Below the pieces are notes generated by a model. It did not search any database, had not been told where the DNA came from, and saw only the letters and a list, made by a program, of their open reading frames with translations. Positions 13,950 to 37,195 of a DNA stretch of 64,000 nucleotides are shown here, in pieces; the stretch's first letter is position 1, and the number at the start of each line of letters is the position of its first letter. The position numbers were made by a program, and so were the translations under genes. Source of the DNA: Octopus vulgaris (lineage: Eukaryota); the NCBI GenBank assembly GCA_951406725.2, contig OX597839.1, positions 17,112,001 through 17,176,000 of the forward strand, written 5' to 3'.

Positions 13950-14749
13950 TACCTACCTACCTACCTACATACATACATACATACATACATACATACATAC
14001 ATACATACATACAACCACCACAGGGTTTTACAAAGCATCAATCAAATAAATTTCACCCGTAAGGTATTTGTCGACTACAGAACACCCTGGTAGAAGACCC
14101 TTGCCCATAATGCTGTTGCACAGAGATTGAACCCAAAACTCCATGTTTGTCAAGCAAACTTTCTAACTTTACACCAATGCCTCACACTCCTACCATTTCA
14201 GAGAACATATTTGGCTGGAATTCAGTTATGGATTATGCTTTACTGTTCACACCAATAAGTAGTCTATATAAATATACGTAAATGCTTGTATCCATCCATT
14301 CATCATTGCATCTATCTAGCTAGACAACCAACCAGCCAGCCACACATATATGCACACTCATATACATACACACAAACTCTCACAGATGTATGTCTACACA
14401 TATATTTCTAATTGAGAAATTTGGTATAACATACTTCCATACAATGGTTTTGTGGCCATGCTGGATATCTTGACTTGAAAAAATTAATTCACTCTTCACT
14501 TTTGTACTAATCAATATAAAGTTACTGCTGCTATCATATATATATATATATATCATCATCATCATCATCATCGTTTAGCGTCCGCTTTCCATGCTAGCAT
14601 GGGTTGGACGGGTCAACTGGGGTCTGTGAAGCTGGAAGGCTTCGTCAGGCCCAGTCAGATCTGGCAGTGTTTCTACGGCTGGATGCCCTTCCTAACGCCA
14701 ACCACTCCGCAAGTGTAGTGGGTGTTTTTCACGTGCCACCTGCACAGGT

Positions 14750-15332
14750 GCCAGACAGAGCTGGCGAACGGCCACGAACGGATGGTGCTTTTACGTGTCA
14801 CCGGCACGGGGCCAGGCGATGCTGGCAACGGACACGAACGGATGGTGCTTTTACGTGCCACCGACACGGGGCCAGACAGAGCTGACAAACGGCCATGAAC
14901 GGACGGTGCTTTTACGTGTCACTGGCACGGGGGTCAGCCGAGGCTGGCAACGGACACAAACGGATGGTGCTTTTACGTGCCACCGACACGGGGCCAGACA
15001 GAGCTGGCAAACGGCCACGAACGGATGGTGCTTTTACGTGCCACTGACACGGGGCCAGACAGAGCTGGCAAACGGCCACGAACGGATGGTGCTTTTACGT
15101 GCCACTGACACGGGGCCAGACAGAGCTGGCAAACGGCCACGAACGGACGGTGCTTTTACGTGTCACCGGCACGGGGCCAGGTGAGGCTGGCAACGAACAC
15201 GAACGGATGGTGCTTTTACGTGCCACCGACACGGGGCCAGGCAGAGCTGGCAAACGGCCACGAGCGAATGGTGCTTTTACGTATCACCGGCACGGGTGCC
15301 AGACGAGGCTGACAGCGGACACGAGTGGATGG
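14750..15332. repeat. about 10 x 60-61-bp GC-rich minisatellite in the RTE 3' UTR
   Basis: Unit gccagacagagctggcaaacggccacgaacggatggtgcttttacgtgccaccgacacggg; two unit types in order A B A B A A A B A B. Confidence 0.95.
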
Positions 15333-17650: not shown

Positions 17651-17948
17651 TATAATTATGTCTCTATCCTACAGCTTATACGTTGTCAATATTCCATGAC
17701 CTTTTACTTCTCTTTTCCTTTGTATGTAAATCAGCTAGAACACTCACTGTTACAAACAACGGAGAACCAGGCTATACTTATTACACCAGGTCAAGGATAC
17801 ATTTAGGAATATACACAGTGGTTTATATAGAGATGATGTTCTCACAACTGTTTTTAATCACTCACCTTCTAAACTTGAAAGACTCAGGAAAAAGTTACTT
17901 GAATTCTTTTGGCTATATAATCTTTCAATGTCATTTGAAAGAAATATT

Positions 17949-18391
17949 GATTTCAAATTTTGGTACAAGACCAGCAATTTCGGTAGGTTGAGAGGCAGTA
18001 AGTCAATTACATTGACACCAGTGTTCAACTGGTACTTATTTTATTGACCTTGAAAGGATGAAAGGCAAAGTTGACCTCAGCAGAATTTGAACTCAGAATG
18101 TAAAGACAGACAAAATACCATCAAGCATTTAGCCTGGCATGCTAACAGTTCTGCCAACTGGTTGCATTCGAAAGGAATATTGGTTTCAAATTTTGGCTCA
18201 ATGCCAGCAAGTTTGGGGGAGGGGATAAGTCAATTACATTGACCCCAGTCTTAACCAGTACTTATTTTATCGACCCCCATAAGGATATAAGACAAAGTTG
18301 ACCTCAGCAAAGTTTGAACTCAGAATGTAACGTCAAACAAAATACCATTAAACACTTTGCCCAGCATGCTAATGATTCTGCTAGTCTGGTG
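17949..18391 (-). mobile_element. head-to-tail dimer of SINE family A
   Basis: Two copies bounded by three copies of catttgaaagaaatatt (17932, 18165 variant, 18392). Confidence 0.85.
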
Positions 18392-18544
18392 CATTTGAAA
18401 GAAATATTTAAAAAAATTTTATTTTCTTGATGTTACATTGGATCTTCAGACCATTTCTAGCTCAATTTGCTCCATGACTGTTATCTTATCTCAAGACAAT
18501 ATGTCCGTCCTTTCCCTTCATGGCAAATCATCTTTTTTTTTTTT

Positions 18545-19236: not shown

Positions 19237-19436
19237 TAAAATAAAACAAGAATTTACGTTGTATGACACGATGTACATGTATTTGATTATGTTGTTTACA
19301 AGCATGTCATTGGTCACTTAGTTATTTCTCTCATCATATATGTATATGTCTGTGTGTATGTGTGTGTGAGTCTGTGTGTGTTTGTGTGTGAGTATGTATA
19401 TATGCATACATACATATCTATCTATCTATCTATCTA

Positions 19437-19530
<94 letters not shown>

Positions 19531-19744
19531 ATAGAAATATTAAAATTACTAAGTCTCCCTAAAGGAGATTACGGCAGCGTTACTGGAAATTAATAGTTAT
19601 CACCATTCTAATATGGCAGTCTTATAAATATAAGACTAAAGCTGTCGCTGATTAGCTCCATGAGGCCATTGCCTTAAGCTAGCTATTTGACACACAAACT
19701 GCGTCCATTATAAACCTTCGAACAAGGGAGGTCAGCCGCTTCAT

Positions 19745-19820
19745 CCTGCCAGTCAGACAGCTACAGACGACATTTCAGGGTTGTTGCCCCTTATCAATGC
19801 AGCGTAGTCAGACTTGCAGG
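19745..19820 (-). ncRNA. type I hammerhead ribozyme, U3:A8 variant (inverted copy)
   Basis: Reverse complement of the 20.0-kb motif; helix III reads GAAAUGUCGUC. Confidence 0.7.
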
Positions 19821-19991
19821 TGTCGCTACTGATCGTCCCAGTTCGAAGGCTTTATTTACCTAGTTTTAGTGAAATACATCCACTTGTTTTCAATAATAGA
19901 AATATTAAAATTACTAAGTCTCTCTAAAGGAGATTACGACAGCGTTACTGGAAATTAATAGTCAGACAGCTACAGACGATCAGTAGCGACA

Positions 19992-20067
19992 CCTGCAAGT
20001 CTGACTACGCTGCATTGATAAGGGGCAACAACCCTGAAACATCGTCTGTAGCTGTCTGACTGGCAGG
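19992..20067 (+). ncRNA. type I hammerhead ribozyme, U3:A8 variant
   Basis: Stem I GCUGCA (20009-14)/UGUAGC (20047-52); core UUGAUAA (20015-21); stem II GGGG-CAACAA-CCCU; GAAA (20036-39); helix III AC-AUC-GU; C17 at 20046; stem I extends with bulge to CCUGC/GCAGG. Confidence 0.75.
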
Positions 20068-20759
20068 ATGAAGCGGCTGACCTCCCTTGTTCGAAGGTTT
20101 ATAATGGACGCAGTTTGTGTGTCAAATAGCTAGCTTAAGGCGATGGCCTCATGGAGCTAATCAGCAACAGCTTTAGTCTTATATTTATAAGACTGCCATA
20201 TTAGTATGGTGATAACTATTAGTATCTATCTATCTATATATACACACGCACACATATATAGTTAGATAGAGACATAGCTAGATAAATAAATACATACATA
20301 CTAACAATGTTTAAACATACATATATGTAAGTGCGAGTGTGTGTATGAATGTATATGTATGTGTGTGTGCGTGCTTGTGTGTGTGTATAATACATTATGT
20401 GTGCAATTATATGTGTCTGCATTTGCATGTATAAGTGCAATGCATGATGAGTGAGGGAGAGAGACAGACAGACAGAAACAGAGTTAGGGAGAGAGTGAAT
20501 GGGGAGACAGAGATAGAAATGAATAAGAGATTGAAGAAGAAGAAGAAGGAGAAGAAGAAGAAGAAGAAGAAGAAGAAGAAGAAGAAGAAGAAAGAGATGA
20601 TAATATTGATGATGATGATGATGATGATGATGGCTATGATGGTGATTTTAGTAAACCGAACAAAGCACAATAAGAGATGATATAAAAACTGTCTAGACGA
20701 AAAAAGGTCTCCTCTTTGTATCATTTCTTTCTTCTAACGTTTGTCCTATATAAATACAT

Positions 20760-31719: not shown

Positions 31720-32108
31720 ATACACACGTCCAGACCTCTCATACGCACTAATACTCTCTCATACACACACACACACTCTTATGTTGGAGCGAGGTCATTT
31801 AACCCTATTATCTCCCCTAATTTCGCTCTTGCGTCTCACGTTTGATCATTGACTTCTGGCCGAAATCAGATCGCCATGTTGATTTGCTAGCCTCTGCACG
31901 CATTTTTTTCTCTCCTTCTTTCTGTGTTTCTTCTCTGTGTGTCTTTCTGTTGAAGAGCGTAGGCTCGAAACGTTAAAGACTTGTTTTATTTATATTTCCT
32001 GAGCGCCATACTAATACAATTGTTTGTTTGTATTCCACCTGCCTTCGTCTTTTGTTTATTTCCGTAAACCTGCCTTCGTCTGTTGTCTATTTTCATAAAG
32101 CTTCCCGT
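31720..32108 (+). mobile_element. Penelope-like element 3'/pLTR fragment
   Basis: CpG-retaining segment with minimal HHR and T-rich tail; tail homologous to 61240-61325 (minus strand). Confidence 0.6.
31941..31980 (+). ncRNA. minimal type I hammerhead ribozyme (CUGUUGA core variant)
   Basis: GUCUUU-CUGUUGA-A-GAGC GUAG GCUC-GAAA-CGU-U-AAAGAC: perfect 6-bp stem I, 4-bp stem II, palindromic ACGU helix III. Confidence 0.75.
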
Positions 32109-32129
32109 TATATATATATATATATATAC

Positions 32130-36491: not shown

Positions 36492-37195
36492 AGTCAGTCA
36501 AGTCAGTCAAAACATTTTATTCATTTATCAGTCAAAATGTATTATGTGTTTTATATCTGAGAAAATATTGATTAAAACATGTCAGTATCAATTTGTCAAT
36601 CAAAATATATTTTATGTCAGTCAAAACATATCATTCATTTAATATCAATCAAAATATACTGTTCATTTAATATCAGTCTAGACATATTAATTATTTAATA
36701 TCAATCAAAATATATGGTTCGTTTTATATCAGTTGAGATATATCATTCACTTAATATCAATCAAAATGTACTGTTCATTTTATAGCAGTCAAAACATATT
36801 GATTAAAATATATGAGTCAAAATACACCAGTCGAAATATATATTTTACATCAGTCAAGCATACCATTCATTTAAAATCAATCAAAACATTGTTTTACATT
36901 ATATCAGTCAAAAATTTGATTAAAACATGTCAATCACAATATATCAATCAAAATATATTGCTATGTCAATTAAAACATACCATTCATTTAATATCAATCA
37001 AAACATACTGTTCAGTTTATATCAGTCAAGACATATCATTCATTTAATATCAATCAAAATATACTGTTCATTTTATGTCAGTCAAGATATGCTATTAATT
37101 TGATATCAATCAAACCATACCATTCATTTTACAGCAGTCAAAACATATTGATTAAAACATGTCAATCACAATACATCAATCAAAATATGTCAGAG
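36492..37195. repeat. degenerate AT-rich minisatellite (about 27-30-bp units)
   Basis: Recurrent atatca(a/g)tcaaaa(c/t)ata...ttcattt and attgattaaaacatgtca. Confidence 0.85.

Follow-up and report, generated by a model that had tools for sequence, protein, structure and literature searches.

A non-coding hammerhead retrozyme family of Octopus vulgaris with Penelope-type insertion footprints and a fixed LINE target site

The retrozyme copy in the analysed window

The window analysed here is a stretch of 64,000 nucleotides from Octopus vulgaris (contig OX597839.1, positions 17,112,001 to 17,176,000 of the forward strand), and in it lies one decayed member of a non-LTR retrozyme family that we call family A. 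The complete, ORF-less unit of 365 bp (41% GC) lies at 19531–19895 on the minus strand, which was taken as the retrozyme sense strand because all copies have one sharp end in common. The sense 3′ end of this unit is a 58-bp tail of the kind left by Penelope-like elements (PLEs; 19531–19588, minus strand, unit sense 308–365), present on the full-unit arm only. Adjoining the unit is the 5′-truncated remnant of an upstream unit (19896–19962, minus strand, sense 299–365), which makes a head-to-tail junction in the manner of a pLTR-like partial tandem; this 67-bp direct repeat, 97% identical to the unit, is the 3′ end of that upstream copy. A 12-bp templated filler (19963–19974, minus strand, sense 131–142), set between short microhomologies at the inversion junction, leads into a 5′-truncated, tailless inverted arm of 247 bp (19975–20221, plus strand, sense 59–305), which is 98% identical to the unit with five differences. 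An earlier, sequence-only reading of the window had described this layout, and its coordinates and identities were re-found, as was the lack of coding capacity: no ORF of at least 40 aa lies within the locus, and the three listed ORFs begin or end in flanking simple repeats. The same reading placed the insertion inside (TATC)n, which holds for the left flank, a (TATC)n/(TGTC)n microsatellite at 19415–19530, but not for the short (TATC)/(TA) right flank at 20222–20245, where there are only about three TATC units; the family usually sits in (TA)n.

Each arm bears a type I hammerhead whose stem I, core, helix II, GAAA and GUC triplet were found where they had been placed. The hammerhead of the full unit occupies 19759–19806 on the minus strand, with its core at 19797–19791 and C17 at 19766, and that of the inverted arm 20006–20053 on the plus strand, with C17 at 20046. 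In the latter, a UAC bulge (20006–20008) and helix I (20009–20014/20047–20052, followed by a U bulge at 20053) precede the U3:A8 core (20015–20021), helix II (20022–20035), GAAA (20036–20039) and a helix III reading ACAUCGU (20039–20045). Helix III of the full unit reads AUGUCGU, a CpG-decay change, and the two arms bear independent changes of this type. Just 5′ of each ribozyme is the position at which other copies carry a LINE insertion flanked by a duplication of unit sequence (19816–19832, minus strand, unit sense 64–80, and 19980–19996, plus strand, inside the inverted arm); both sites are empty in the window copy. The earlier claim of a ribozyme on both strands stands as an observation, the second one being a by-product of ordinary PLE 5′ inversion.

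Both arms fold as a three-way junction (z −3.5 and −3.9), and Rfam searches of the region and of the ribozyme alone returned no hammerhead match for this copy. The calculated helix III self-duplex energies of the two arms are +0.3 and −1.1 kcal/mol, as compared with −4.6 (ACAUGU), −7.2 and −10.3 kcal/mol for intact families, and a transcript across both arms is predicted to form a 98%-paired duplex. At least two consecutive ribozyme-bearing units, the mark of an active copy according to Li et al. (2026), occur in the family (L027, L301, L310) but not in the window copy, which, having a single ribozyme per strand, a weakened helix III and arms predicted to pair as a long duplex, is probably an inactive dead end. 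Elsewhere in the window lie a GC-rich tandem array at 14721–15332 (61-bp period, 9.6 copies, higher-order unit of 122 bp), two diverged copies of a 227-bp repeat at 17932–18408, probably an interspersed repeat in tandem, and an AT-rich minisatellite at 36609–37193 with nested 14/28/56/112-bp periods.

Family A, its ribozyme and its sister families

Units of family A are 362–365 bp long. Searching the 2.8-Gb genome with the unit gave 2,629 candidates, 40 of which were scored; a 20-nt stem I/core pattern had 400 exact matches and the 26-nt head-to-tail junction 1,502, while the reversed controls had none. The copy number is not due to chance, and the earlier claim of a repeat family is borne out. 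Like known retrozymes, family A is a tandem, multi-copy unit within the 150–450 bp range, with GC below 50% and no coding capacity, and five-unit arrays of near-identical units are found at two loci (L301 and L310). Of 70 junctions read onward from the head-to-tail join, 68 lead into the unit again; the other two are a chimera and a truncated copy. Among the sequencing runs that contain the unit, none is recorded as RNA. Most of the unit is represented in contigs of four runs that we guess to be RNA, with lower depth near the cleavage site; as this stretch is polymorphic and contigs can show neither ends, circles nor levels, no weight was placed on them.

Among the 36 best-matching units, 34 have the core UUGAUAA, and helix III reads ACAUGU in 13, ACGUCGU in nine and ACGU in seven, the remaining seven being single variants. 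This first sample, drawn by the stem I/core pattern, was biased in that it left out the largest subfamily, as follows from the 400 as against 1,502 matches. A second sample was therefore composed of 40 further loci on contig 1, chosen by the junction and unmatched by the stem I/core pattern, in which 63 of 70 junctions could be parsed. Their cores were UUGAAAA (44), UUGACAA (13), UUGAUAA (4) and two others, with U3:A8 in 62 of the 63 and a helix III of ACGCGU in 58. Position N7 is variable (U, A or C) and the 3:8 pair is kept; since the cores of the two samples differ at position 7 and not at 3:8, position 7 is free and U3:A8 is fixed family-wide. The U3:A8 pair noticed in the window is, as had been supposed, a real feature and not an accident of one copy. 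The palindromic character of helix III is preserved through its changes (ACAUGU, ACGCGU, ACGU, ACACGUGU, ACUAUAGU, ACUGCAGU), the step from ACAUGU to ACGCGU being a two-sided change within family A. The ancestral helix III proposed earlier, GAAACGUCGUC, suits the subfamily of the window copy (9/36 units), but it is an imperfect palindrome and the majority forms are ACGCGU and ACAUGU.

The hammerhead is a full type I ribozyme, with a 6-bp helix I, a UAC/U internal loop, a 4-bp helix II and a loop of 5–6 nt. The bases that make tertiary contacts between loop 1 and loop 2 in canonical type I ribozymes are conserved, the core deviating as U3:A8, and the hallmarks of the minimal form (long helix II, short helix I, an unpaired base after A9, no tertiary loops) were not found in it. 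By the definitions in PMC4209133 and PMC7229834 the ribozyme is accordingly a canonical retrozyme hammerhead, and the minimal, pLTR-type ribozyme of the sequence-only reading has to be given up in favour of a form that matches the Rfam HH9 consensus. A copy of sister family B with a canonical core matches HH9 (E 9e-4, below the gathering score) and has the same UAC bulge, 6-bp helix I, 4-bp helix II, 6-nt CAANNA loop and U bulge; a second canonical-core sister copy gave no Rfam match.

Sister families B, C, D and E, which like the LINE target site described below were absent from the earlier reading, consist of related units of 354–365 bp that are about 58% alike and share a common scaffold (loci L149–L198, L223, L225, L234 and L286). 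The core is CCGAUGA in family B (497 pattern matches), UUGACGA in family C (40 pattern matches; canonical and U3:A8 variants also occur), CUGAUGA in family D and the canonical CUGACGA in family E. Every major family includes a non-consensus core (U3:A8, U4C or U3:G8), and U3:A8 also arose in family C. In an alignment of 18 ribozymes 98.4% of cells are paired and 13 of 17 pairs show two-sided change, as compared with 25–49% pairing in slid alignments and 0 of 500 shuffles that reach the covariation score; as the 18 sequences are related and hand-picked and the structure was drawn from them, these figures are to be read as support and not as a probability. Two-sided covariation spans all helices, the 3:8 pair and the dimer palindrome, and the earlier proposal of a conserved structure is supported.

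Insertion footprints and co-resident Penelope-like elements

The 3′ ends of family A inserts lie at sense ~365 or ~307, that is, with or without the tail. Two-ended inserts combine one full and one tailless arm in 15 of 24 cases in a first set, which was biased toward full-length units, and in 22 of 26 in a second (37/50 in total); one insert was full at both ends, none was tailless at both, and the remainder had one disrupted end. The same combination was seen in 8 of 9 two-ended inserts of family B. TA-rich DNA adjoins the proper ends in 57/66 and 61/64 cases, as compared with a window background of 7.7%, and an inversion is present in 24/53 and 26/44 inserts of family A. Partial tandems, inversion, a one-sided tail and (TA)n targets make up the pattern of PLE insertions described by Craig et al. 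(PMC8557442), and the family A pattern matches it. The 58-nt tail is longer than the 30–40 bp published for PLEs.

A head-to-tail junction is present in 42 of 53 inserts, showing that the reverse transcriptase crosses the cleavage site in most; since most inserts run through this site, the template was probably a circle or an uncleaved multimer. No pile-up of 5′ truncations was seen at the cleavage site (4/71 and 2/67 breakpoints). Truncations and inversions instead have a hotspot at sense 166–176 (16/71 and 12/67 breakpoints, about 2 expected), which is the base of a long hairpin enclosing the ribozyme.

The genome contains at least three PLE families that are both EN+ and young and that have open frames (781, 1312 and ~1,092–1,200 aa). 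The 781-aa PLE has a tail of ~38 nt, shorter than that of family A, and a minimal ribozyme with a U3:A8 core and ACAUGU (1,439 matches). In its copies L092–L095 a second coding-like stretch, ~1.3 kb long, lies upstream, with a stop between it and the RT frame. The 1312-aa PLE (L299:3763–7698; 7,749 candidates) has a 3′ UTR that is internally rich in (TA)n, and a tail of ~56 nt, close to the length in family A; its protein had no Pfam match at E 0.1 and no clear hammerhead was seen in the element. From the cysteine linker, the 781-aa and 1,092–1,200-aa PLEs appear to be Neptune-type. The window itself contains, at 31900–32110, the 3′ end of a 1,092–1,200-aa PLE. This end has a 31-bp terminal duplication as well as its minimal hammerhead, and (TA)n comes after it. 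The minimal hammerheads of the autonomous PLEs are also non-consensus (U3:A8, U4C, U3:G8, and one with GCAA for GAAA; loci L092–L098, L254, L258, L247 and L341–L370). The core and ACAUGU common to family A and the 781-aa PLE may be convergent, which is possible because U3:A8 also arose in family C; given this and the different tail, we did not accept the 781-aa PLE as the partner on the common core alone.

Two chimeric inserts, two events among ~230 partly redundant loci, join retrozyme to PLE sequence. In the first (L307/L340), a tailless inverted arm and a sense arm of family A pass into the last 1.2 kb of the 1,092–1,200-aa PLE through an 8/10-base microhomology, with (TA)n on both sides. 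The second (L293–L296) joins a family E array, 5′-to-5′, to a copy of the 1312-aa PLE that is truncated and tailed; in two loci (L293 and L295) the outer E end is tailless. Three loci (C28) have a common flank and represent one event, and at L296 the junction recurs with a different flank. Template switching explains both chimeras, though later deletions could do so as well. Two further retrozyme–PLE neighbours (L080 and L175) were rejected as chimeras, being 3′-to-3′ co-insertions.

Cumulatively, we consider it likely, with good confidence, that family A is a non-coding hammerhead retrozyme that owes its reverse transcription and its insertion to co-resident PLEs, whose RT and GIY-YIG enzyme would act on it in trans, and that its ribozyme is predicted to cleave multimeric transcripts as a dimer; the earlier suggestion of a retrozyme or non-autonomous PLE family is supported to this extent. 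In tandem transcripts, two ribozymes would pair via the palindromic helix III and cut after GUC, and the monomers, by analogy with other retrozymes, would be ligated into circles of ~365 nt. The PLE reverse transcriptase would copy circles or uncleaved multimers from the unit 3′ end and pass the cleavage site, giving rise to arrays of 1.x to 5 units with 5′ inversion.

The same footprints could be left if the ribozyme were vestigial or strongly attenuated and the arrays were produced not from circles but by template jumps and from read-through RNA. Passage of the reverse transcriptase through the cleavage site in most inserts is in keeping with this, as are the non-consensus cores of the major families, a monomeric active fold that is 2–10 kcal/mol above the MFE, and a preprint by Li, Clavereau & Pollet (2026; 10.64898/2026.07.22.740005) in which 8 of 9 Xenopus retrozyme dimers were reported as uncleaved in vitro. 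However, two-sided covariation of all helices, the 3:8 pair and the palindrome, seen even within family A, together with conserved tertiary-contact bases, argues against this, and U3:A8 is reported to be active in vitro (PMC3088659); we regard loss of function as unlikely, if still to be reckoned with.

It is improbable, in our view, that an autonomous PLE still to be found has the unit as its terminal repeat (pLTR) and that the copies are its 5′-truncated ends. The insertion architecture is indeed PLE-like, and 24 of 57 Xenopus retrozyme families are reported in the preprint to match transposable elements, almost all at PLE termini. In family A, however, the unit rather than a coding body resumes past nearly every junction, five-unit arrays exist, and the ribozyme is canonical whereas those of autonomous elements are minimal. 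The genome search that the earlier reading called for yielded the high copy number and tandem arrays but no attached RT/GIY-YIG ORF: neither such an ORF nor homology to a PLE terminus was found among the PLE families sampled, no ORF-bearing parent was seen, and no sequence common to four retrozyme units and eight PLE families, their 3′ ends included, was detected.

A LINE target site inside the units and its wider meaning

Two ribozyme matches 3.9 kb apart led to a 1.7-kb ORF1-only element inserted at a fixed LINE site, unit sense 64–80, at which 14–17 bp of unit sequence are duplicated. Among the first 30 of 49 exact matches to the ORF1-only derivative, 22 of the 3′ ends lie at the homologous site (family A 6, B 10, C 3, D 3) and 8 elsewhere; two of the off-site copies begin with target-like bases. 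For the autonomous LINE, 13 of the 14 3′ ends examined lie at the family C site and none was seen in family A. Its ORF2 encodes a 1,128-aa APE-RT protein (Pfam Exo_endo_phos, RVT_1 and zf-RVT) whose best PDB match is L1 ORF2p, and to which a protein search attached no name; the ORF1-only element has a weak zf-CCHC match (E 0.049). More than 20% of flanks lie in one repeat and a target duplication is present, which is the threshold for target specificity in the Tx1 clade, and the inserting LINE appears to be L1/Tx1-type as judged by domains and target specificity. LINE copies were recorded at L144:537–3938 (minus strand) and L199–L212, and ORF1-only copies at L099–L148 and L213–L242. Inserts are often stacked in tandem at the regenerated site, and composite retrozyme–LINE units are themselves tandem or truncated within the LINE part (L132, L141, L146 and L147). 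Because composites were re-amplified, the on-site fractions overstate the number of independent events; several such events are nevertheless needed, since four families and two LINE types are involved.

That the LINE mobilises the retrozyme within which it lies, or is part of a longer parent element, is suggested by the tight association of the two and by the tandem, 5′-truncated composites, but it is highly improbable given the flanking duplication of unit sequence, inserts in several diverged families and subfamilies stacked at the regenerated site, the 8/30 off-site ORF1-only copies, and retrozyme inserts that have one-sided tails, inversions and (TA)n targets rather than LINE-type ends. 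For the first three of these reasons the ORF1-bearing long form was also rejected as the parent element.

Starting from mobilisation of the retrozyme in trans by PLE enzymes, a broader and more tentative picture, possible rather than probable, is that of a three-tier nest of retroelements. In it, the retrozymes would make up a superfamily that forms circles and has hammerhead cores that are deliberately weak and active as dimers only; several PLE enzymes would copy it in trans, and an L1/Tx1-type LINE and its ORF1-only derivative would target it specifically. The PLE enzymes would have no terminal sequence in common with the retrozymes, and the template-switch chimeras would be direct fossils of their action. 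The LINE and its derivative would insert ~65 nt upstream of the cleavage site, the ribozyme would, by hypothesis, trim LINE read-through RNA and thereby leave target-matching sequence on it, and both elements would ride the Penelope pathway as composite units.

Parts of this have precedents. Retrozymes and a proposed PLE partner have been described before (PMC7229834, PMC7761336, PMC6765202), and U3:A8 was known as a functional variant, as the earlier reading held, being natural and active in vitro (PMC3088659) and present in Schistosoma PLE ribozymes (PMC4209133). Both the variant and the retrozyme–PLE link are already published, and both-strand ribozymes are ordinary; what is added here is the PLE footprint and chimera evidence, a series of core variants that occur in nature, and the site targeted by the LINE. 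Like the metazoan non-LTR retrozymes described by Cervera & de la Pena (2020, PMC7229834) in coral, mussel (350–390 bp) and axolotl (330/350 bp), the octopus families are non-coding tandem units of a few hundred bp with less than 50% GC, a canonical type I hammerhead, a weak palindromic helix III and co-resident PLEs. Unlike those, as described there, they have family-wide non-consensus cores (U3:A8, and U4C and U3:G8 in the sisters); their short arrays are dispersed and show 5′ inversions and a tail at one end, and a fixed LINE site lies inside the units. The Schistosoma Cercyon PLE hammerheads (Cervera & de la Pena 2014, PMC4209133) share U3:A8, a palindromic helix III and opposite-strand copies 100–700 bp apart; compared with these minimal forms, the octopus ribozyme has a helix I of 6 bp with an internal loop and a helix II of 4 bp; A9 is not followed by an extra base, and the unit has no attached RT/GIY-YIG ORF.

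Li et al. (2026), who treat retrozymes as non-autonomous PLEs, conclude on the same mobilising partner. Their case is built on vertebrate co-occurrence and Xenopus pLTR homology, whereas ours is built on footprints and chimeras with no pLTR homology; the accessible text of the preprint mentions neither molluscs nor Tx1. As for cephalopods, a list in the giant squid genome paper includes 235 Rfam hammerheads, which are not analysed in its accessible part. Tx1 LINEs that target transposons (Kojima 2015, PMC4494074; Tx1L in Tx1D, Tx1-Mar and SINEU in Mariner-N4) likewise have an APE-RT protein, a fixed position in a mobile element and tandem inserts sandwiching the target duplication. In contrast to those examples, the octopus target is a ribozyme-bearing retrozyme. 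Its site persists among families whose similarity is only ~58%, and it serves an ORF1-only derivative as well. Our literature search, which covered the text of papers, found no account of family A or of a LINE targeting a retrozyme, although Repbase or supplements may contain one.

The LINE site extends transposon-in-transposon targeting to a ribozyme element, and a role of read-through RNA in target choice is testable in this system. Rfam and descriptors that require CUGANGA miss these families entirely, so that retrozyme counts are probably too low, and the 3:8 series (C:G, U:G, U:A) together with U4C on a covarying scaffold offers a test of whether retrozymes tune cleavage down. So far, only co-occurrence and, for frogs, homology of the termini have pointed to the enzyme that moves animal retrozymes; the chimeras and the tail on one end provide mechanistic evidence from an invertebrate. 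Family A is young and abundant and resides beside open-frame PLEs, and it thereby supplies a concrete RNA/enzyme pair for an assay of trans-mobilisation.
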